In this document: positions 2,722 to 62,598 of the stretch, piece after piece | How the letters are laid out: every line of letters starts with the position of its first letter | Numbering within the stretch: the first letter of the stretch is position 1 | Source of the DNA: an uncultured virus (IMG/VR IMGVR_UViG_3300020048_000037) | Lineage: Duplodnaviria; Heunggongvirae; Uroviricota; Caudoviricetes | IMG/VR virus record: IMGVR_UViG_3300020048_000037 | Reading direction: 5' to 3' (one strand) | Length of the DNA: 64,000 nt | Program-made: the position numbers and the translations under genes | The notes under the pieces: generated by a model | Told to the model about the DNA's origin: nothing | Database searches by the model: none | What the model saw: the letters and a program-made list of their open reading frames with translations, nothing else

Positions 2722-3675
2722 TTATAAATATTTAAAATAATTTTTTTTGTGTGATTTTTTATTTCCTGATAGTACTTCCCATATTCTATTACTTTTGGTA
2801 TTAAAATAATCTGCACATTTTTTTACACTATCAAATTCTTTTATTGTTTCTCCGCTTTCTGATATTTGAGCAACTGGTTTAGACCTTATTAATTTATTTT
2901 CATCTGACATTGGTCCTTTTTTTATTCCAGTCATAGCTTTACTCATTTTAAGTTTAACTTCATCTGATCTTTTTTGTCCAGTGTTTTTTTTAACTCTTTT
3001 TTCAATAGTTTCTTTGCTTTGTTTTTTACCTTTATTTAATATACTTAATTTTAATTTAGTTTCATCACTTATTATTTTACCTTTTTGTGATTTGCTTTGT
3101 TTTAATCTGGTTTCATAAGTAGTTATTCTACCTTTCAGAGAGTTACTTAATTTTAATTTAGTTTCATCTGATAAATGAGTACCTTTCAATTTATCAGATA
3201 TTTTCTTTTTAGTTTCGTCTGTTTGTATTCTTCCTAAATTATTTTTATTACCAGTACTTTTTTGCCTTAATATTTTCTTTGTTTCGTCACTGTGTCTCAT
3301 TCCTAAATTGTGTCCAGCATTAGGTACAATATTATATCCATTTTTACAGCAATCTAAAAAATCTATATAATATTGTTCTCTAATTATAATATTTTCTATT
3401 TTACATTCTTCAACAATTTCATATTTAAAATTTTCTATACCATATTTATCATAAGCTCGTTGTAATTTAATTGAATGATGTTTATTCTTTTTTAATTGAT
3501 TTTTATGTTGATTTATTCTTCCTTTAACATTCAATGATGATCCAATATAGCATTTGTTATCTNNNNNNNNNNNNNNNNNNNNNNNNNNNNNNNNNNNNNN
3601 NNNNTAAAAGTTTTTTGTATTTTCATATAATGTTTTATATGTATATATAAATATATTAAAGTTCAAATTAGACAA
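2722..3675 (-). CDS. GIY-YIG homing endonuclease with NUMOD3-like repeats (5' end uncertain, N gap)
   Basis: CYIGSS..R..QH..L..NKHHS.KLQRAYDKYG; repeated (H/Q)SDETKxK(I/L)S; C-terminal NUMOD1-like HTH. Confidence 0.85.
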   Translation of the reverse strand: MSNLNFNIFIYTYKTLYENTKNFXXXXXXXXXXXXXXXDNKCYIGSSLNVKGRINQHKNQLKKNKHHSIKLQRAYDKYGIENFKYEIVEECKIENIIIREQYYIDFLDCCKNGYNIVPNAGHNLGMRHSDETKKILRQKSTGNKNNLGRIQTDETKKKISDKLKGTHLSDETKLKLSNSLKGRITTYETRLKQSKSQKGKIISDETKLKLSILNKGKKQSKETIEKRVKKNTGQKRSDEVKLKMSKAMTGIKKGPMSDENKLIRSKPVAQISESGETIKEFDSVKKCADYFNTKSNRIWEVLSGNKKSHKKNYFKYL

Positions 3676-13264: not shown

Positions 13265-14680
13265 TTGAGTGGAATGTTTAAAAACACAAATCAATATTCT
13301 TTTGATTACAATAAAAGTGATTATGATGATTTAATTTCTATAGCCAAGAAGTATAGGAATGTAAAGAATTATGTTTACTCATCTTTTTCTGGAATTCATT
13401 CATATTTAAAGGTTTATAATCAAAGAAAGGATATACGTGATGTTTGGACAAAGAATGGGTTTATTGACACTTGGGGAATTTCAAGACGGTATATTAGAAA
13501 TGCGATAGAAGATGCTGTGAGTGATATTAAGGTTAGTTGGAAACAAACTTTAAAGAAAACAAGGAAAGATATAAATAAATCAAAGTTGAATAAGGAAGAA
13601 AAAATATTTGCTTACACCATTTTAAAGAACAAATTATTTCTCTTTAACGTTTTAACTCAAATAGAGTTTGATGTAGATAAATTTGATGATATTGATAAAT
13701 TAAAGATGCTCAAGTTGATTCGTAGATTGATCAGGAAGAATAAACCAAGAATATCAAACACGAAAAAACTATCCATGTTAATTGATAATGAGATGTATAG
13801 TTATGACTCAGAAAATATATTAATAACATCTTCAGTCAAGAATAAACGATTCAAGTTTAAGGTTAACACTAATGATAGATACACTGGTAGTATTAGAATT
13901 GTAATAGAAGATGATAGAATTCGTTTTTCAAATAGTATCACAATTAAGACTAAAACCATTGATTATGAACAAGAAAGGATTGGAGTTGATAAAAACTACA
14001 TCAACTGTTTTGATACAAACAATGAAACATCATATGGTTTAAAGTTGAACGATAAAATAGTTTCACTGAGTGATAAACTTCAAGCAAAAAACAGCAAAAG
14101 ACAGTTTTATCATAATAAAATAACGGATGAAAAAGATTTAAAGAAGATAAATAATATCAAAAAATTCAATCTTGGTAAAAAGAAATATAATAAAACAAAA
14201 AATGCGTTGCAGGAAGAGATTCGTAAACATGTTAACCAAGCAGTTAATAAAATGATTCTAACTGAAAAGCCAAAAGAAATTGTAATGGAGAAACTTGATT
14301 TCACCAGCAAAGCCAAAAAAATTAGAAAGAAAAGAATAAATAGACTACTTTCAACCTGGACCAAAGGATACCTACAGGAAAGAGTAGAATATAAATCAGA
14401 ACAAAATAATATTAAAATAATAGACTGTAATGCAGCTTACACATCACAAGAATGCCCGTCATGCCATGACTTCGGTCATAAAACAAACGACATTTTTTAT
14501 TGTGACAATCATAAATGTGATAACCACGAGGGTGTGAATTCTGGACATTCGGCAGCAAAGGTAGTTTTACAACGGAGTTATGATAAAGATATAAACCTCT
14601 TTACGACATATAAAAACGTTAAAACTATCTTGACTAAACGGTTGGAAGAATTAAAAACCGATCCAACCAAGATATCGTAA
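13265..14680 (+). CDS. tnpB: TnpB-like (IS200/IS605/IS607 family) RuvC + zinc-finger protein, possibly nuclease-dead
   Basis: RIGVD (RuvC-I), IVMEKL (RuvC-II), YTSQECPSC..FYC..C zinc finger; NSGHSAA where NADxNAA is expected; no tnpA nearby. Confidence 0.85.
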   Translation: MSGMFKNTNQYSFDYNKSDYDDLISIAKKYRNVKNYVYSSFSGIHSYLKVYNQRKDIRDVWTKNGFIDTWGISRRYIRNAIEDAVSDIKVSWKQTLKKTRKDINKSKLNKEEKIFAYTILKNKLFLFNVLTQIEFDVDKFDDIDKLKMLKLIRRLIRKNKPRISNTKKLSMLIDNEMYSYDSENILITSSVKNKRFKFKVNTNDRYTGSIRIVIEDDRIRFSNSITIKTKTIDYEQERIGVDKNYINCFDTNNETSYGLKLNDKIVSLSDKLQAKNSKRQFYHNKITDEKDLKKINNIKKFNLGKKKYNKTKNALQEEIRKHVNQAVNKMILTEKPKEIVMEKLDFTSKAKKIRKKRINRLLSTWTKGYLQERVEYKSEQNNIKIIDCNAAYTSQECPSCHDFGHKTNDIFYCDNHKCDNHEGVNSGHSAAKVVLQRSYDKDINLFTTYKNVKTILTKRLEELKTDPTKIS

Positions 14681-25788: not shown

Positions 25789-25990
25789 ATCAAAATTTAA
25801 AAAAGATGATATCATTGTTGTATTAAAAGATTTTTTTATACCAGGAACAGGTGTTACATTTAGTTATTATAAAGGACATAAATATAAATTAGAATGTATT
25901 TTAAAATGGCAAGTTCCTGTGAGACATGAGGTTAATTTAATAACTAAAATTGAAAGAAAGAAAAAAATAATTAAAATAAATAATGGATAA
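25778..25990 (+). CDS. Hypothetical protein, RxxK tag
   Basis: ERKKKIIKINNG*. Confidence 0.65.
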   Translation: MENKSKFKKDDIIVVLKDFFIPGTGVTFSYYKGHKYKLECILKWQVPVRHEVNLITKIERKKKIIKINNG

Positions 25991-28322
25991 TTACTTTATA
26001 AAAGCAAGCACAAGTTTCATTGGACAAACTGGTTATAATGCACATGCAAGAGATTTTTTCACAGCATTAAGCAAAAAAAATAACTTAAAAATTAGAAATT
26101 TTACTGTTGGTAAAAGTTGGAATGGATTAGGAGTAAAATTAAATAATGGTAGATATGGTGATCCACACAAAAAAGAAAAATATTTAACTGAATATCAAAG
26201 AAATTTGATTTCAGAACAAACATTATATTCTGATCCAAATACACCAGGTTATTACAATGGACTCTGTGATTTTAATATAAACACTGAAAGTCTAGTTGAA
26301 TATACTCAAGATAAAATAATTGATATTATATTAAGTGAAACTAATCATCAATATTTTTATAATCTTGAAAAATATAAAGGATTCAAAATAGCATATAATG
26401 TATGGGAATCAACTAAATATGATGATGATTTCTTTGAATTATTAAAACAATATGATCAATTTTGGTGTCCATCTGAATGGCAAAAACAATGCGTTATAAA
26501 TCAAGGATATCCAAAAGATAGAGTGTTTGTAGTACCTGAAGCAGTTGATGGTAACATATTTAAACCAGATTTTTTTAATTCTGAAATTGATATGTATAAA
26601 GATAATAGATTCAAATTTGTTATGTTTGGTAGATGGGAATATAGAAAATCTACAAAAGAAATTATTGAAACATTTTTAAAAACTTTCACAAAAGAAGATC
26701 CAGTAGATTTAATATTAGCTGTTGATAATTCTGATTATGCTAATGATGGAATGAAAACAACTGAAAATAGATTAGAGTTTTATAATTTTAAAGATGATAG
26801 ACTAAAGGTTCTACATTTTGTCGAAAGAAAGGATTATATTAATTATTTAAAAAATGGTCATGTATTTTTATCTTGTTCAAGATCAGAAGGTTGGAATTTA
26901 CCTCTTTGTATTCCTTCTGGTAAATTAATATTTAGTAATAATAGTTTTATAACAATAGAATCAATAAAGGAAAATGATATTGTTATTAGTCACACAGGAA
27001 AAGAGCAAAAAGTATTAAAAGCATTTAAAAATAAATACAATGGTGATATAACAAAAATTGATTTATATAATGATTTTGAACAATTAGAATTAACTCCAGA
27101 ACATCCTGTTTATGCGATTAAAAGAAATAAATTTATAACAAAAAAAGGAAAATTTAATAACATACCAAATATTAAGCCAGAGTGGATAAAATCAAAAGAT
27201 ATTAAAAAAGGAGATATAATTTTAAGAACAACTATACCTCAAACTTATTTTGAAACAGAAAAATTTGATTTGCTTACATTAGATGATACTTTATTATATG
27301 ATAATGAAAAAGTGTGGTATAAAACAGGATATAATTATAAAAGTGAAAAACTTACATATAATAGATTTATTAATTTGTATGATTTATCTTTTTTATTTGG
27401 TTGGTATATAGCAGAAGGTTGTGATTCATCATATAAGTTGACTTTTTCTTTAAATGCACAAAAAGAAATACATATAGCGGAAAATATTATATCTGAGATA
27501 AAAATAATATTTAATGCAAAAGGAACATATTTTATTAAAGATAATAGATTAGTTGTAGTTTTTAATTCTACTATTTTATGTAAATTTTTTAATAATTTCT
27601 GTGGAAAAATGTCATATAATAAAATAATACCAGAAAAATATCTTTTAGGACCATTAAATATTTTAGATGAATTAGTTAAAAACATGGTATTAGGTGATGG
27701 ATGTTTTTTAGATGCAACTAATAGATTTAATTATACAACAGTATCAAAAATATTAGCTAGACAATTAATGTTTGCTAATCAAAGATTGAATAAAAAAACA
27801 TCACTACAACTTAATAAAAGGAAAAGAATTGATAAGAGACCTTGTTATACGTTATCTTGGAGTATAAATAATGAAAATTACAGGCATAGTAATAAGTCTT
27901 GGTGGCATCCTGAAGGATTAGCAATTTTAGTAAAAAATATTAAATTTGAAAAATATGATGATTATGTTTATAACTGTGAAATTGAAAATGATAATTCATA
28001 TCTTATGTCAAACGCAACAGTACATAATTGTGAATCGTTGGCTTGTGGTACACCATCAATATATTCTAATTGTAGTGGTCAGTTAGAATTTGCAGAAGGA
28101 AAAGGACATCCAGTTAAAATATTACATGAAACTCCTGTTCCTAATGGAGTTGGAAATTATTATGAGCCAGATTTTAACGATTTATCAAAAGTGATGAAAG
28201 ATGTATATGTAAATTATTGGAGATATAAAGAAAAAGCAATAAAAGAATCAGAAATTATTAGAAATGAATTTTCTTGGGAAAATGCAGCAGATAAAGCTAT
28301 AAAAATACTTAATAATATATGA
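25983..28322 (+). CDS. GT4-type glycosyltransferase interrupted by an intein
   Basis: TGYNAHAR, YNVWES, GRWEYRK, SRSEGWNLPL|CESLACGTP. Confidence 0.9.
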   Translation: MDNYFIKASTSFIGQTGYNAHARDFFTALSKKNNLKIRNFTVGKSWNGLGVKLNNGRYGDPHKKEKYLTEYQRNLISEQTLYSDPNTPGYYNGLCDFNINTESLVEYTQDKIIDIILSETNHQYFYNLEKYKGFKIAYNVWESTKYDDDFFELLKQYDQFWCPSEWQKQCVINQGYPKDRVFVVPEAVDGNIFKPDFFNSEIDMYKDNRFKFVMFGRWEYRKSTKEIIETFLKTFTKEDPVDLILAVDNSDYANDGMKTTENRLEFYNFKDDRLKVLHFVERKDYINYLKNGHVFLSCSRSEGWNLPLCIPSGKLIFSNNSFITIESIKENDIVISHTGKEQKVLKAFKNKYNGDITKIDLYNDFEQLELTPEHPVYAIKRNKFITKKGKFNNIPNIKPEWIKSKDIKKGDIILRTTIPQTYFETEKFDLLTLDDTLLYDNEKVWYKTGYNYKSEKLTYNRFINLYDLSFLFGWYIAEGCDSSYKLTFSLNAQKEIHIAENIISEIKIIFNAKGTYFIKDNRLVVVFNSTILCKFFNNFCGKMSYNKIIPEKYLLGPLNILDELVKNMVLGDGCFLDATNRFNYTTVSKILARQLMFANQRLNKKTSLQLNKRKRIDKRPCYTLSWSINNENYRHSNKSWWHPEGLAILVKNIKFEKYDDYVYNCEIENDNSYLMSNATVHNCESLACGTPSIYSNCSGQLEFAEGKGHPVKILHETPVPNGVGNYYEPDFNDLSKVMKDVYVNYWRYKEKAIKESEIIRNEFSWENAADKAIKILNNI
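26907..28028 (+). mobile_element. Intein with LAGLIDADG homing endonuclease (374 aa)
   Basis: Starts CIPSG, block B LTPEHPV, GWYIAEG and MVLGDG motifs, ends VHN followed by Cys+1. Confidence 0.92.
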
Positions 28323-55911: not shown

Positions 55912-56649
55912 ATGATGTCAGACAAAAAAACATGTTATCAAAAACCATTATCAGTAATTTGTATAAAATCAAATAATACAAAATTAATAATAGGTGCAAA
56001 ATATTTAGCAACAACAATGTATTACGTATATAATAGTAATGTTAAAAAAGTTGCAATAAAAAATGTTGGTAATTATACTGCTGATTCTTTTACATTAGAA
56101 ACTGGAGAACCATTAATTGATTTAGATGTATTTTTTGTTAATAGTGCTAAAGACTTAGATATAGAAAATAATAATTATGTAGGTAAACTTGTTAGATGCC
56201 GTTATAGTGATAGTAAAATATTAAAAAATGGACAAATATATTATGTTGAAGAACAATTTATAGATAGAACAAAAAAATACCTTAGTTATTATATAAAAAT
56301 TAAAGGTGTCAAACATAAAATTCAGTCATATAATTTTGAAGAACTACCTGTTTCTGAACAAAGAGCAATAAAAATAAAAAATATAGCAGGAGATAAACTA
56401 AAAACAACAGAAACAACACGAAAATTTTTACTTTATACTGAAATTGAAAAAACTGAAATTTTATTAAAATCACTATTATTAATATTATCAGATATTAATA
56501 AAATAGAAAATCTAGATAAATTAAATATTGATATAATTCAACTAATAAAAAATAAATGTAAAAAATATAACGTCATAGAAGATGATATTTATATTTTTCT
56601 AAAAAATGATATAAAATCAATAATTGATTTGTATGGTATAAAAATATAG
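55912..56649 (+). CDS. Hypothetical protein
   Basis: Internal QRAIKIKNI motif. Confidence 0.65.
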   Translation: MMSDKKTCYQKPLSVICIKSNNTKLIIGAKYLATTMYYVYNSNVKKVAIKNVGNYTADSFTLETGEPLIDLDVFFVNSAKDLDIENNNYVGKLVRCRYSDSKILKNGQIYYVEEQFIDRTKKYLSYYIKIKGVKHKIQSYNFEELPVSEQRAIKIKNIAGDKLKTTETTRKFLLYTEIEKTEILLKSLLLILSDINKIENLDKLNIDIIQLIKNKCKKYNVIEDDIYIFLKNDIKSIIDLYGIKI

Positions 56650-56685: not shown

Positions 56686-56964
56686 ATGAAGTATATTAAA
56701 AAATTTGAATTTTTAGAATTTGATATACCAGAGAAAATTAAAAAATTGGCTATCGAATTAGATTTTAAATTTAGAACAACAACAAAAGAAGATATGAAAA
56801 ATAAGACTATCTTCCAAATAATAAAAGAACTTGGCTTTGATAGTGGAGAATTAAGTGGAGTTGAACTAGGGCAAATTCTAATGTATCAGATGAAATTCAA
56901 TAAAATGACTGATAATGAATTCTTAAAATTCTATAATAATTATAAAAAAAATCCTGAAATTTAA
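56686..56964 (+). CDS. N-tag family protein
   Basis: MKYIKKFE. Confidence 0.7.
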   Translation: MKYIKKFEFLEFDIPEKIKKLAIELDFKFRTTTKEDMKNKTIFQIIKELGFDSGELSGVELGQILMYQMKFNKMTDNEFLKFYNNYKKNPEI

Positions 56965-56980
56965 ATTTCAGGATTTTTTT
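56945..56980. terminator. Bidirectional terminator closing the tRNA operon
   Basis: AAAAAAATCCTGAAATTTAAATTTCAGGATTTTTTT. Confidence 0.8.
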
Positions 56981-56981
56981 G

Positions 56982-57052
56982 TTCCATTGTATAGATTCAA
57001 ACTATACCTCTAACATTCAATGTGTTATGTGCTATCGCTACACCACAAGGAA
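56982..57052 (-). tRNA. tRNA-Gln(TTG)-like, atypical
   Basis: Cloverleaf; anticodon stem TAACA/TGTTA, loop CA-TTG-AA (A33); D-loop GA with T-loop TTTGAAT; one acceptor mismatch. Confidence 0.65.
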
Positions 57053-57062
57053 ATATAAAATG

Positions 57063-57133
57063 TTCTTACTCTAAGATTCGAACTTAGTCACTCATTTTCA
57101 GATGATGAGATGCTACCATTACATCAAGAAAGA
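57063..57133 (-). tRNA. tRNA-Gln(CTG)
   Basis: TCTTTCT/AGTAAGA acceptor, D-loop AATGGTA, loop AT-CTG-AA, T arm CTAAG-TTCGAAT-CTTAG. Confidence 0.75.
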
Positions 57134-57134
57134 G

Positions 57135-57220
57135 TCGCCTTGGTGGGGTTCGAACCCACAAGCTCATTATGAGCATCAGTTTCAAAGACTGACATGTTTA
57201 GCCAATTCCATCACAAGGCA
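57135..57220 (-). tRNA. Class II (long variable arm, Leu-like body) tRNA with TTG (Gln) anticodon
   Basis: TGCCTTG/CAAGGCG-A; D arm ATGG-AATTGGCTAA-ACAT; TCAGT-CTTTGAA-ACTGA; V arm GCTCA-TAA-TGAGC; GTGGG-TTCGAAC-CCCAC. Confidence 0.85.
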
Positions 57221-57230
57221 GTGATATTTG

Positions 57231-57302
57231 TTGCTCTATTCGGATTCAAACCGAAACTGCGGACTTCAAAGATCCGATTGCTATCATTACAAATATAGAG
57301 CA
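57231..57302 (-). tRNA. tRNA-Gln(TTG)
   Basis: Perfect acceptor TGCTCTA/TAGAGCA; CGGAT-CTTTGAA-GTCCG; TTCGG-TTTGAAT-CCGAA. Confidence 0.8.
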
Positions 57303-57312
57303 TTATATAAAC

Positions 57313-57396
57313 AAAAAAACCAACTTTAATAATTGGGCATAAAAAAACCCAATCTATAAGATTGGGTAAAAAAACAGACACGACTCTAACCCAATC
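57313..57396 (-). promoter_or_regulatory. Transcription attenuator: antiterminator plus two tandem terminators
   Basis: GATTGGGT (57389-57396) competes with AGATTGGGT (57347-57355) for ACCCAATCT (57359-57367); U-tracts at 57341-57346 and 57313-57319. Confidence 0.8.
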
Positions 57397-57448
57397 AAAC
57401 GAAAGTTTGTTGTTGTTGCTGAGTCATATTTGAAATATTTTTATTCAT
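57395..57448 (-). CDS. Gln-rich leader peptide MNKNISNMTQQQQQTFV
   Basis: ATG..ACT CAG CAA CAA CAA CAA ACT TTC GTT TGA; stop overlaps antiterminator strand. Confidence 0.8.
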   Translation of the reverse strand: MNKNISNMTQQQQQTFV

Positions 57449-57473
57449 TGTAAATTCAATTAAAGTCGTAATG

Positions 57474-57482
57474 TATATAGTA
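57474..57482 (-). promoter_or_regulatory. Putative phage TATATA-type promoter for leader/tRNA operon
   Basis: TACTATATA about 25 nt upstream of leader ATG; same motif precedes many operons. Confidence 0.45.
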
Positions 57483-57493
57483 ATATATTTTTA

Positions 57494-57697
57494 TTAAGTT
57501 TTTTCTATTTTTAAATTTTCTAAATCTTTTTTTGTTGCGATATCAAATAATTGAATATATTCATGTAATTCTAAATCACACAGTCTTTTTTTATTAAACA
57601 ATTCAAACATTGTTTTCCATCCATCAACTTCATTCCAATCCAATAGATAATAATATCCTCTAGCTGGTACTTGTGTATAATCAATTAATTCTTTCAT
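57494..57697 (-). CDS. Hypothetical protein
   Basis: 67-aa ORF. Confidence 0.6.
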   Translation of the reverse strand: MKELIDYTQVPARGYYYLLDWNEVDGWKTMFELFNKKRLCDLELHEYIQLFDIATKKDLENLKIEKT

Positions 57698-57897: not shown

Positions 57898-58332
57898 ATG
57901 AAACACATCAAATCATTCAAATTATATGAAACAGGAGAATGGAATAAAAATATAACATGGGAATATGTTAAAAATAATCCTGATGATGATAGTCAAGAAT
58001 CTAATATGATATTTTTTTTAAGTGAAACACTATCAGATTTAATATTATTATTAAATGATGATTATATTAAAATCCTTGATATAAAAGGATATGATATATC
58101 AACAGGACCATATGCTAATGTGAGTATTTTAGGAAATTTTTATAAAATATGGATTTCTAATGAAAGAGATAGCGATTTATATATTGAAAATTTTCCAATT
58201 GATAATTGCTCAGAAATTGACTTAATACCTGGATATATTGGTAGTATTAAAGAAATAGCACACATTATTAATAGCGTTGCTATTAGTGGTGGTTTTGAAT
58301 TATATGACTCAACAAAAAAATTTAATGTATAA
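57898..58332 (+). CDS. Dual-tag family protein
   Basis: MKHIKSFKLYE...KKFNV*. Confidence 0.8.
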   Translation: MKHIKSFKLYETGEWNKNITWEYVKNNPDDDSQESNMIFFLSETLSDLILLLNDDYIKILDIKGYDISTGPYANVSILGNFYKIWISNERDSDLYIENFPIDNCSEIDLIPGYIGSIKEIAHIINSVAISGGFELYDSTKKFNV

Positions 58333-59474
58333 TGAAATATTTAATATATTTTAATGAAAGTATTGAAAATAATATAGATAACTCATCAAATGATTTTACA
58401 ACATTATATGAAGATGATAATTGGATTGTAACAAAAGCAAAATCATACGAGTCTTTAGAAACTTGGTCAGAAGATGGTAATATAAATATGAAAACACATC
58501 GTTATGATTTTTCAAATTTATATTTAAATACAAATAAAAAAGATAATACTAAAATTGTATTAAATTTCGATAGAACAGATTTTTATAATATTGATGATGA
58601 TGTTATTTATTTGAAAGATTTTTTTGATGAAAATAATTATTTATTTAAATTTTATAGTAGTATTATACCATGTGATAATATTGTAAAAGACAATAATGAT
58701 TATTGGCTAGTAGTTAAAGATTATTCATTTTTTGAAGATTACTTTAAATTAGATAGTGGAACAAGACATGATTTAATTAAAGAAATATTATCAGATGAAG
58801 GTTATAATGCAGATTACTCTACATCTAATTTTGAGTTAGATGAAAATATTAAATTAAATAAGGATAATTTAGATATTGTTAAAATTTTATTGTTTCTTGA
58901 AAAAATTGAAAATGATTACGAATATAATATTGATGATATATCTGATTATGATGATGTTGTTAGTATAATAGAAGAATATGATTTAGATGATATTATAAGA
59001 ATATTTAAAAGTTGTATTTGTACAGGACATGAAAGAGCAGATAGTAATGCTGCATGGAACGATATTTTTAATGAAATTGTTTCTTTTTTTGGTATTGATG
59101 AAAATATTATTAAATGGGATCATTATAATAATAGCATAGGACAAATGTTATGGTTAAAATTCAATAGTGAATCTGATGCAAATAATGCTAAATTTATTAT
59201 ACTCAAACCAGATGATAGTTATGAAGATGATATAATTGAATATTCACCACCTTATTATGGATATTCTGGAGATTCAAAATATATAGTAGAAACATTTAAT
59301 GAAGAATTTATTGATAGAATAACAGAATATGATAATGTTGATGTAAATTATGATAAAATAATAGATTATTATAATTTTTTTAAAGAAAAACAAGAAATAA
59401 ATCCGAATATAAAAATCACAGATATATATGGTGATTATAAAATATATTTAGATACTAAAAAATTTAACATATAA
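58332..59474 (+). CDS. Large acidic dual-tag family protein
   Basis: MKYLIYFNE...KKFNI*. Confidence 0.8.
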   Translation: MKYLIYFNESIENNIDNSSNDFTTLYEDDNWIVTKAKSYESLETWSEDGNINMKTHRYDFSNLYLNTNKKDNTKIVLNFDRTDFYNIDDDVIYLKDFFDENNYLFKFYSSIIPCDNIVKDNNDYWLVVKDYSFFEDYFKLDSGTRHDLIKEILSDEGYNADYSTSNFELDENIKLNKDNLDIVKILLFLEKIENDYEYNIDDISDYDDVVSIIEEYDLDDIIRIFKSCICTGHERADSNAAWNDIFNEIVSFFGIDENIIKWDHYNNSIGQMLWLKFNSESDANNAKFIILKPDDSYEDDIIEYSPPYYGYSGDSKYIVETFNEEFIDRITEYDNVDVNYDKIIDYYNFFKEKQEINPNIKITDIYGDYKIYLDTKKFNI

Positions 59475-61012: not shown

Positions 61013-61189
61013 ATGAAAGAGACAAATAGAAAAATTGTAATATCAATATCTTTGAATCCAAAATTATTAGAAACTATAAATAATACAGTTTCTAATCGTT
61101 CTAAGTTCTTAGAGAATTGTATAATATCTGAATTGTGTAAAAGTTCTACAATCAAAGAAGAACTTCATAAAAAAATGTTAATATTATGA
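61013..61189 (+). CDS. Small RHH-like protein (type B, cassette 3)
   Basis: Not in ORF track; MKETNRKIVISISLNPKLLETINNTVSNRSKFLENCII...MLIL*; ATGA overlap with 61186. Confidence 0.75.
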   Translation: MKETNRKIVISISLNPKLLETINNTVSNRSKFLENCIISELCKSSTIKEELHKKMLIL

Positions 61190-62598
61190 TATTAACAAAA
61201 ATAGTAGAAGTTAAAATAGCCAATAAAAATATAAATTATTATAAAGTTAAAGGTTATAAGTGTGAAGTTAATGATATAATATGTGTTAAAATAGAAGATT
61301 TAACTAAAGGTAGTCACGAAAAAATAGTAGTTAAATGTGACAATTGTGGTAAAGAAAATGAAATGACATATCATTCTTATAATTGTAATTTTTATAATTG
61401 TAATTTTCATTATTCTTGTTCTAAATGTTCGGTAGAAAAAACTAAAAAAACAAATTTGGAAAAATATGGTGTTGAACACGTATCTCAATCGAAAGACATA
61501 AGAGAAAAAATTAAAAATACTAGTTTGGAAAGATATGGAGTTGAAAATGCATCTCAAAATATAAGTGTACGTAATAAAATTAAAGAAACTTGTTTGAAAA
61601 AATATGGAGTTGAAAGTTATTCAAAAACAGATGAATATAAAGAAAAATTTAAAGAAACAATGATGACACGATATGGTGTTGAACACCAAATGTATACTCA
61701 AGAAACTAAAGATAAAATTAAAGAAACTTGTTTGAAACGATATGGAGTAGAATACATTTTACAAGATATAGACATAAGGAACAAATCTAAAATAACTTGC
61801 TTGGAAAAATATGGAGTAGACAATTATTCAAAAACAGATGAATATAAAGAGAAATTTAAAGATACTATGTTGAATCTATATGGTGTTGAATATCCTACTC
61901 AAAATTATGAAATTAAAGAGAAAATTAAAAAAATTAATTTAGAAAAATATGGTTTTGAATATCCTATACAGAATTCAATTATTTATGAAAAAGTTAAAAA
62001 TACAAATTTGAAAAGATATGGTGTTGAACATGTTTCACAAAATAAAAAAATAAAAAATAAAAAAATAAAAACTTGTCTTTTTAATTTTGGTGTTGAATAT
62101 CCTACCCAATGTGATCAAGTTCAAGATAAGATTAAAGAAACATGTTTAAAAAAATATGGAGTGGATAATTATTCTAAGACAGAAGAATGCAAAGAAAAAT
62201 TTAAAGAAACAATGTTGGAACGTTATGGTGTTGAAAATCCTCAACAAAGTGAAGAAATTTTTGAAAGAACACAAAAATCAGCGTTTCAGTTAAAGAATTA
62301 TAAAAATTATTTATATAGAGGAACTTATGAATTAGATTTTCTTATTAAATTTAGTGATAAAATAAAAATTGAGAAGGCTAAGTCTATTGATTATTTCTTC
62401 GATAGTAAAAATAAAAAATATCATCCTGATTTTTATCTACCTGATTATAATTTCATAATCGAAATTAAAAGTAGTTATACTTATGAGTGTGAAAAAGAAC
62501 AAAATGATGCTAAAAAAGAAGCCACTATAAATAGTGGCTATAATTTTTTATTCATTGTTGATAAAGATTATACTGAATTGTTTCTAATATTGAAATAA
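61186..62598 (+). CDS. Repeat-rich PD-(D/E)XK homing-endonuclease-like protein (cassette 3)
   Basis: N-terminal zinc ribbon, about 12 x 23-aa KxTxLx(K/R)YGVE repeats, YHPDFYLPDYNFIIEIKS. Confidence 0.8.
   Translation: MILTKIVEVKIANKNINYYKVKGYKCEVNDIICVKIEDLTKGSHEKIVVKCDNCGKENEMTYHSYNCNFYNCNFHYSCSKCSVEKTKKTNLEKYGVEHVSQSKDIREKIKNTSLERYGVENASQNISVRNKIKETCLKKYGVESYSKTDEYKEKFKETMMTRYGVEHQMYTQETKDKIKETCLKRYGVEYILQDIDIRNKSKITCLEKYGVDNYSKTDEYKEKFKDTMLNLYGVEYPTQNYEIKEKIKKINLEKYGFEYPIQNSIIYEKVKNTNLKRYGVEHVSQNKKIKNKKIKTCLFNFGVEYPTQCDQVQDKIKETCLKKYGVDNYSKTEECKEKFKETMLERYGVENPQQSEEIFERTQKSAFQLKNYKNYLYRGTYELDFLIKFSDKIKIEKAKSIDYFFDSKNKKYHPDFYLPDYNFIIEIKSSYTYECEKEQNDAKKEATINSGYNFLFIVDKDYTELFLILK

Follow-up and report, generated by a model that had tools for sequence, protein, structure and literature searches.

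A window of 64,000 nucleotides (nt), the whole stretch of DNA analysed here, from the uncultured Caudoviricetes virus of IMG/VR record IMGVR_UViG_3300020048_000037 encodes an unusual transfer RNA (tRNA) at positions 57135..57220 on the minus strand, which we refer to as tRNA B. It is 86 nt long, class II-shaped, that is, with a long variable arm, and carries the anticodon UUG; its identification draws on ARAGORN, Rfam, covariance models built in this work, homologs and covariation. ARAGORN called a tRNA-Gln(ttg) at 57134-57220 on the minus strand, and the Rfam model RF00005 matched 57135-57220 (-) with 50.6 bits (gathering score 29; E value 6.9e-08 for the whole window), the only gathering-level match in the 64 kb. 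In textbook accounts, only tRNA-Leu, -Ser, -Tyr and -Sec have long variable arms in bacteria.

The acceptor stem of tRNA B, UGCCUUG/CAAGGCG, opens with a U1.G72 pair followed by G2-C71, and its 3' strand is followed by A73. Next to its 5' strand come U8 and G9 and a D stem of 3 base pairs (bp; A10-U25, U11-A24 and G12-C23) extended by G13.A22, which encloses the D loop AAUUGGCUAA (including A14, A15, G18 and G19). The anticodon stem UCAGU/ACUGA closes the loop CUUUGAA and is followed by U44. The anticodon itself, at 57183..57185 (-), reads CAA; it pairs with no stop codon, so that tRNA B is not a suppressor, and it fits Gln (YUG) rather than Leu (NAG or YAA). Instead of the 4-5 nt loop of class I architecture, the variable region spans 15 nt and forms a 5-bp helix, the hairpin GCUCA-UAA-UGAGC at 57162..57174 (-) in the sequence and in the ARAGORN structure, after which UU (including U48) remains unpaired before the T stem. 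The T arm is GUGGG-UUCGAAC-CCCAC, and the acceptor and T stems have the regular 7/5 arrangement, with all pairs standard. Every structural detail listed by the first-pass annotation of this locus (86 nt, long paired arm, G13.A22, A15/U48, U1.G72, A73 and TTG) is thus present.

That annotation had also singled out the anticodon as a base call to verify. Contigs from run X1, which may be the sample from which the window came, cover 57145-57365 without differences, and contigs from run X5, from another study, cover 57145-57292 with 9 differences; the anticodon is unchanged in both, within a region (56900-57500) for which contig coverage was absent for some parts in some runs. In addition, 12 related viral contigs carry the whole locus, each with a nearly identical tRNA B. 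Identity across these and the X1 and X5 contigs rules out an assembly error at the anticodon.

Three further tRNAs were found on the same strand by Rfam at permissive thresholds. tRNA A (57231..57302; 46.2 bits), a class I tRNA-Gln(UUG) that ARAGORN missed, carries A15/U48; tRNA C (57063..57133; 39.8 bits), which lies 1 nt past tRNA B and was also called by ARAGORN, is a class I tRNA-Gln(CUG); and tRNA D (56982..57052; 35.9 bits) is a weak class I tRNA with the loop CAUUGAA (anticodon UUG, A33). All three have U1-A72 and A73. With A, C and D flanking it, tRNA B is therefore one of four consecutive tRNAs with Gln anticodons, and it is the constant member of this operon: identity to homologs in related contigs is 95-98% for tRNA B, against 32-89% for tRNAs A, C and D where these are present at all. 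Within one set of relatives, the L068 group, tRNA A is missing and there is no tRNA at the place of tRNA D; elsewhere a different Gln tRNA occupies that position, and tRNA D is only 32-37% identical to it. As tRNA D also carries A instead of the near-universal U33 and has two acceptor mismatches, it may be decaying. A hairpin with A/T runs on both sides (56945..56980), conserved in relatives, ends both the tRNA operon and a converging plus-strand gene.

Upstream of the tRNAs lies a short open reading frame (ORF) of 17 codons plus stop (57395..57448, -), encoding M N K N I S N M T Q Q Q Q Q T F V, in which 49-50 of 54 bases are identical in three groups of relatives. Its five consecutive Gln codons, CAG CAA CAA CAA CAA (57407..57421, -), are identical at 15/15 bases in all three groups. 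The ORF is followed by a region of alternating complementary segments (57313..57396, -), read from the sequence and conserved with changes in relatives. The stop codon of the leader overlaps GAUUGGGU, which can pair with ACCCAAUC, the 5' half of the terminator hairpin. This first terminator (ACCCAAUC...GAUUGGGU plus a U run; 57367-57341, -) includes one of the two terminator-like sites found (57367-57347) against 0.3 expected, and a second hairpin, GCCCAAUU...GUUGG plus a U run, follows at 57337-57313 (-). The fold of 57303-57450 is more stable than shuffled sequences (z = -5.05), and its minimum free energy structure uses the pairing of segments 3 and 4. The region therefore has the layout of a leader attenuator, namely a short ORF with a run of regulatory codons, then a terminator hairpin with a U run, and the Gln-codon leader and terminator of the putative attenuator that had been proposed above tRNA B are real and conserved in relatives. 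We found no description of leader-peptide attenuation of tRNA genes or of Gln-leader control in the literature searched.

The switching logic that we infer for this operon would begin with translation of the 17-codon leader through its five consecutive Gln codons. With Gln-tRNA plentiful, the ribosome would reach the stop codon and mask segment 1, so that the terminator hairpins form and transcription stops. Slow decoding of CAA/CAG would instead stall the ribosome at the Gln run, leaving segments 1 and 2 to pair with each other, as would segments 3 and 4; neither terminator could then form, the tRNA genes would be transcribed and decoding capacity would be restored. In the L068 group, the operon holds only tRNA B and a CUG tRNA behind a leader with four CAA codons. 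tRNA B is the sole UUG tRNA there, and such a feedback loop would therefore require it to decode CAA.

We searched for relatives with a pattern made of the anticodon loop and T arm, which forces the anticodon, and obtained 79 viral loci, 51 of which hold a long-armed tRNA(UUG). Together with two from complete huge phages and that of the window, these amount to 54 copies and 38 distinct sequences. Because this pattern forced the anticodon, we added an anticodon-blind search with the D arm, which returned 25 loci and 24 tRNA calls: 22 with UUG, 1 Met(CAU) and 1 His(GUG). The first-pass annotation had named Leu anticodons in homologs as a refutation of its reading; 0 of the 24 calls carried one. 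Application of the same pattern to 185,579 species-representative genomes gave only 18 loci, 5 of them with such tRNAs (6 tRNAs), mostly on short or phage-like contigs. The D arm UGRUGGAAUUGGYUAAACAY also recurs on a long-armed Met (CAU) tRNA (locus L148, 242-327, -) and a His (GUG) tRNA (locus L153, 294-384, +), and one scaffold may have been reused for several isotypes.

An alignment of the 21-sequence Leu-like subfamily to which tRNA B belongs showed standard pairs in 490/490 cells. Compensatory changes were seen in 23 of its 24 pairs, including 4/4 aligned variable-arm pairs, a level reached by 0/500 shuffles. UUG is invariant in 21/21 members, the anticodon loop is canonical (C32 U33 UUG A37 A38) and the T loop is intact. 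tRNA B is thus a real tRNA under selection, neither an error nor a one-off. These features also bear on the idea that it is no decoder at all, being instead a tRNA-shaped decoy or regulator (such as nuclease bait) or an amino-acid donor outside translation. Precedents exist, in that phage tRNAs counter tRNA-cleaving defence (PMC12409363) and the phage enzyme Mom uses Gly-tRNA outside translation (PMC13219725), and the phages considered here carry class II-shaped versions of many isotypes. Nevertheless, the invariant canonical anticodon loop, the intact T loop, the 7/5 arrangement and the proposed feedback in the L068 group, which would need its only UUG tRNA to decode CAA, make this idea highly unlikely.

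Next, we considered the resemblance to tRNA-Leu. Covariance models were built from 18 distinct phage tRNA-Leu (R1) and from 52 phage class I tRNA-Gln (R2). tRNA B scored 72.4 bits on the Leu model and 50.3 bits on the Gln model, while the order was reversed for tRNA A (33.9 and 61.4 bits), tRNA C (30.5 and 61.0 bits) and tRNA D (22.0 and 48.1 bits). Outside its own family, the D arms nearest to that of tRNA B are those of tRNA-Leu, with the class I Gln D arms of these phages not far off. The geometry of its variable arm (a single base, then a stem of 3-5 bp around a loop of 4-5 nt, then two unpaired bases) is the phage tRNA-Leu pattern; after the arm, phage tRNA-Ser leave one base unpaired, tRNA-Leu two, tRNA-Tyr three and long-armed tRNA-Lys four. 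Variable-arm loops here are short and mostly GAAA-like, and none displays a spare Gln anticodon. Read on the opposite strand, the same stretch would present the anticodon CAA (Leu), a reading that we rejected, since only the minus strand accommodates the T loop and the position of the variable arm; the Leu model gave the plus strand 8.7 bits.

The first-pass description of a Leu-type body is hence borne out by the D arm, the geometry of the variable arm and the scores on the two models, and the Leu-like chimeric architecture of tRNA B is confirmed. Two of the marks cited for it, A73 and A15/U48, are present but are not specific to Leu here, because A73 also occurs in tRNAs A, C and D of this operon, and A15/U48 in tRNA A. 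The class II scaffold of tRNA B appears to be derived from tRNA-Leu. Among family members scored on both models, 19/40 favour the Leu model by 7 bits or more and the rest score about equally, so that long-armed Gln tRNAs are heterogeneous, with that of the window in the Leu-like group.

Such a body invites the proposal, one of two made in the first-pass annotation, that an anticodon-blind leucyl-tRNA synthetase (LeuRS) charges tRNA B, and that CAA is read as Leu on induction to keep ribosomes moving. Besides the model scores, D arm and arm geometry, this proposal draws on the A73 retained in the clade of the window and is compatible with a placement behind a sensor of Gln stalling. It would also have precedent in the nev-tRNAs of nematodes, class II tRNAs of Leu origin that carry Gly or Ile anticodons and were charged exclusively with Leu in vitro (PMC3333845). 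Moreover, long-armed UUG tRNAs whose end is entirely of the Leu type (G1-C72, A73 and encoded CCA) were found on contigs of metagenome-assembled genomes at loci L209 (370-455) and L214 (370-454). Leu-type acceptors with a UUG anticodon therefore exist, and these two are better candidates than tRNA B for Leu-charged readers of CAA.

The acceptor end of the subfamily points the other way. Its 1:72 pair is UA in 12 members, UG in 5, AU in 3 and GU in 1, and never G-C. Phage class I tRNA-Gln have U1-A72 in 43/50 distinct sequences and U1-A72-A73 in 35/50, whereas phage tRNA-Leu have G1 and A73 in 18/18; a first base G is thus seen in 1/21 subfamily members versus 18/18 tRNA-Leu (Fisher P = 3e-10). 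Position 73, which tRNA-Leu keep as A, varies among the 21 members (11 with A, 6 with G and 4 with U), so that 10/21 have G or U. Judged by its first pair, the acceptor end of the subfamily is Gln-like, not Leu-like. tRNA B itself carries as Gln determinants the anticodon UUG, a weak first pair starting with U1, and G2-C71. Mischarging mutants of the Escherichia coli su+3 tRNA-Tyr, which has a long arm and U35, become acceptors of Gln through a change in the 1:72 pair or at base 73, and a long arm alone is therefore no bar to glutaminyl-tRNA synthetase (GlnRS).

The use of CAA in the window phage also argues against Leu at this codon. Among the Gln codons of 39 long window ORFs, CAA accounts for 208/239 (87%) and CAG for 31. 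In the Dam methylase, 4/4 CAA codons fall in alignment columns whose prevailing residue across 119 homologs is Gln, as do 6/9 in the gp32-like protein, two of them in columns with Gln in at least 118/119. For the two proteins together, 10/13 CAA codons lie in Gln-commonest columns and 0 in Leu-dominant columns, which indicates that CAA means Gln in the window phage. Since CAA is the main Gln codon, its decoding as Leu would damage most phage proteins. Set against this proteome cost, the move away from G1, the variable position 73, the lack of homologs with a Leu anticodon in the anticodon-blind search and the GlnRS gene present in the same type of operon in two complete relatives, the Leu missense tRNA is disfavoured, and we consider it unlikely.

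Alternatively, tRNA B could have a dual identity, being charged by both GlnRS and LeuRS (or by the tyrosyl or seryl enzymes, which also use long-arm tRNAs), with low-level statistical insertion of Gln or Leu at CAA upon induction. It does mix the weak U1 pair and UUG with A73, A15/U48 and a Leu-type core and arm. However, the same proteome-cost arguments apply as to Leu missense decoding, and conservation of 95-98% with perfect pairing fits a dedicated function, although this is not decisive; we therefore regard dual charging, too, as improbable.

The complete huge phages LR745206 and LR756502 (40-43% gp32 identity to the window) show the same order of leader, terminator and Gln tRNA cluster, with a GlnRS gene next in line. 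Their Gln-run leaders read MTTTQQIQQQQINQTD in one and MTTSFQQQQQQQINRTD in the other, with leader and terminator at about 920-1050 in locus L195 and about 970-1105 in L196, and each tRNA cluster includes a long-armed UUG tRNA. The GlnRS gene, which in LR745206 spans 1450-3048 of L195, starts 28-34 nt past the last tRNA and matches TIGR00440 with 661 and 618 bits (cut-off 425.8). More broadly, a Gln-run leader lies within 700 nt upstream of 11/38 distinct long-armed-Gln loci compared with 1/38 control stretches. In 12/12 distinct cases, the tRNA that follows a short Q-run ORF is a tRNA-Gln, a count biased by the selection of loci for Gln tRNAs. The first-pass annotation had proposed that tRNA B, placed under the Gln attenuator, keeps ribosomes moving when Gln-tRNA is unavailable. 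Its position stands, but the idea is weakened: the leader would also drive GlnRS in two complete relatives, which suggests a response that increases the capacity for ordinary Gln charging and decoding.

Genes of the PF00749 type (glutamyl-tRNA synthetase (GluRS) or GlnRS), of about 530-545 amino acids (aa), occur in all four complete huge phages compared here (LR745206, LR756502, LR756504 and LR756501; loci L195-L198); the TIGR00440 scan covered those of LR745206 and LR756502 only, and both are GlnRS. A second PF00749 gene of about 500 aa is present in each of these two phages. In the regions analysed, a long-armed Gln tRNA was found in 2 of the four phages and a GlnRS gene in all four, and the presence of GlnRS is therefore no predictor of a long-armed Gln tRNA.

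Taken together, we favour the reading that tRNA B is a CAA decoder, probably charged with Gln, on a leucine-derived scaffold. Of the two possibilities originally put forward, this corresponds to the unusual class II tRNA-Gln, supported by the first pair, position 73, the meaning of CAA and the genomic context. Several observations weigh against it. For the body of tRNA B, the Leu model outscores the Gln model by 22 bits, and tRNAs in the clade of the window carry A10, a first pair of U1.G72 instead of U1-A72, and a retained A73. The bases favoured by E. coli GlnRS are G10 and G73. The nev-tRNAs and the Leu-like ends at L209 and L214, described above, point the same way. A GlnRS gene was not found in the window, nor in any of five related partial contigs (0/5), although these are only 8-46% complete; GlnRS is adjacent in only 4/79 IMG/VR loci, and the GlnRS genes of LR756504 and LR756501 have neither such a leader nor tRNA neighbours.

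If tRNA B is a Gln-charged decoder, a nuclease or another factor directed at ordinary tRNA-Gln might act poorly on its foreign body, and a GlnRS that reads the anticodon would still accept it. Escape from tRNA-targeting nucleases is our leading guess for the role of the long arm. It is plausible but unsupported for Gln, because the AriB nuclease of PARIS left E. coli tRNA-Gln(UUG) uncut (PMC12409363), a result that also counts against our overall interpretation. More generally, and only tentatively, huge phages may systematically rebuild isoacceptors on foreign class II scaffolds, those for Gln in the window and those for Lys, Thr, Asn, Glu, Pro, His and Met elsewhere, with the Gln ones behind a stall sensor acting as an inducible counter-defence of leader, tRNA and sometimes GlnRS. 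Destruction or shortage of host tRNA-Gln would then stall ribosomes at the CAA run and induce a spare tRNA with a disguised body; GlnRS would charge it by its anticodon, and nucleases that read the body would no longer recognize it.

Long-armed tRNAs of unexpected isotype are not confined to Gln. In the four complete huge phages, 19-21 of 199 ARAGORN calls were long-armed tRNAs of isotypes other than Leu, Ser and Tyr, among which Lys forms were commonest (7), then Thr (3) and Asn (2). Lys, Thr and Asn are the targets of AriB (PMC12409363); they are also the isotypes most often long-armed in huge phages. Across huge phages, the long-armed set comprises Lys (UUU, CUU), Thr (UGU), Asn (GUU), Glu (UUC), Met (CAU), Pro (UGG), His (GUG), Val, Arg and Cys. 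Loci with such tRNAs include L035, L040, L046, L049, L051, L055-L057, L165 and many IMG/VR loci, and the geometry of the arm differs by isotype. At L040 (3226-3288, -; LR756504), the short ORF MRTILIIKKKKRDAIPIKIE, which contains a Lys run, closely precedes three Lys tRNA genes, of which one is long-armed. This ORF may be a Lys counterpart of the Gln leader, although AAA runs are common in AT-rich DNA and chance is possible.

G+C across the 64-kb window is 20-27%. Phage hallmarks include a gp32-like single-stranded-DNA-binding protein, a Dam methylase, GIY-YIG and other homing endonucleases, an intein and a TnpB-like gene. An intein-interrupted glycosyltransferase, the TnpB-like gene and several homing endonucleases (GIY-YIG/NUMOD; DUF7487) lie at 25983-28322 (+), 13265-14680 (+), 2722-3675 (-) and 61186-62598 (+). 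The nearest gp32 proteins (40-47% identity) are those of the uncultured huge phages LR756504, LR756501, LR745206 and LR756502, of 635-735 kb, and much closer relatives of the window are IMG/VR contigs of 58-330 kb, rated 8-46% complete. From the sizes of the huge phages, together with the lengths and completeness ratings of these contigs, we infer a genome of about 700 kb for the window phage, with 22% G+C. A Pfam and PHROGs search of 26 ORFs neighbouring the tRNAs yielded almost nothing near them, and a look for RNA data sets over the stretch found none. A blastn search of GenBank phages with 56900-57450 gave no match, an exact 47-nt search of viral contigs with tRNA B gave 0 matches, and a search for syntenic loci with the neighbouring proteins (55912-56649 and 58332-59474) as probes recovered no relatives.

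Reading stop codons as sense was tried and rejected for the window: TAG as sense adds nothing (coverage 0.797 to 0.800), and TAA inflates ORFs, as expected in AT-rich DNA. Code 11 was kept for these reasons. Of the 88 window ORFs of at least 100 aa, 56 end in TAA, 29 in TGA and 3 in TAG. A 72-nt tRNA(CUA), an amber suppressor that ARAGORN labels Pyl, is present in 3/5 related contigs (L168 1501-1572, L172 1501-1572 and L169 1500-1571), and TAG may be recoded elsewhere in the genome of the window phage.

The long-armed tRNA-Gln(UUG) family, supported by covariation and found in dozens of large viral contigs, lies outside the textbook set of long-armed tRNAs. Its members offer a natural test of synthetase identity carried onto a foreign scaffold, with a bearing on the design of orthogonal tRNAs, and bear on whether natural tRNAs can pass from Leu to Gln identity through change of the anticodon and first base pair. 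The Gln leader and its link to GlnRS suggest that phages sense and repair the shortage of one charged tRNA. Should tRNA B carry Leu after all, it would represent a natural missense system under regulation, an even more surprising outcome.

We found no description of a long-armed tRNA-Gln in phages in the literature searched, but several known systems share parts of this one. The nev-tRNAs resemble tRNA B in being class II, derived from tRNA-Leu and equipped with an anticodon that is neither Leu nor Ser; tRNA B differs in that it reads the main Gln codon of the phage, has a remodelled first pair and sits in a Gln module (PMC3333845). Allo-tRNAs are long-armed tRNAs of bacteria and phages with unexpected anticodons, proposed to be missense or nonsense suppressors; they have an 8/4 or 9/3 arrangement and Ser-type features, whereas tRNA B is a regular 7/5 cloverleaf (PMC5389517). 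The tRNA-Lys, -Thr and -Asn of phage T5 are escape tRNAs against AriB of PARIS, which reads the D loop as well as the anticodon stem (PMC12409363). Like tRNA B, they are phage isoacceptors that duplicate host tRNAs and differ in body positions; unlike it, they carry point changes and no new arm, and no defence system is linked to tRNA B here.

Compared with bacterial and phage class I tRNA-Gln(UUG), tRNA B shares the loop CUUUGAA, the weak U1 pair, G2-C71 and A73, as well as Gln tRNA neighbours and, in relatives, a GlnRS gene. It departs from them in its 15-nt variable region with a 5-bp helix in place of 4-5 bases, its 3-bp D stem with G13.A22, its longer D loop and its U1.G72 instead of U1-A72. 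With bacterial-type tRNA-Leu it has in common the D arm UGAUGGAAUUGG..AAC, A15/U48, A73 and the two unpaired bases before the T stem, and it differs by the anticodon UUG, U1 rather than G1, a position 73 that varies in relatives and its location in Gln operons. The leader, finally, recalls the trp, his and pheST attenuators, in which a short ORF with a run of regulatory codons is followed by alternative hairpins and a U-run terminator, pheST being a synthetase gene. The operon of the window would follow the same logic, applied here to phage tRNA genes, joined by GlnRS in relatives, and with Gln as the regulatory codon.

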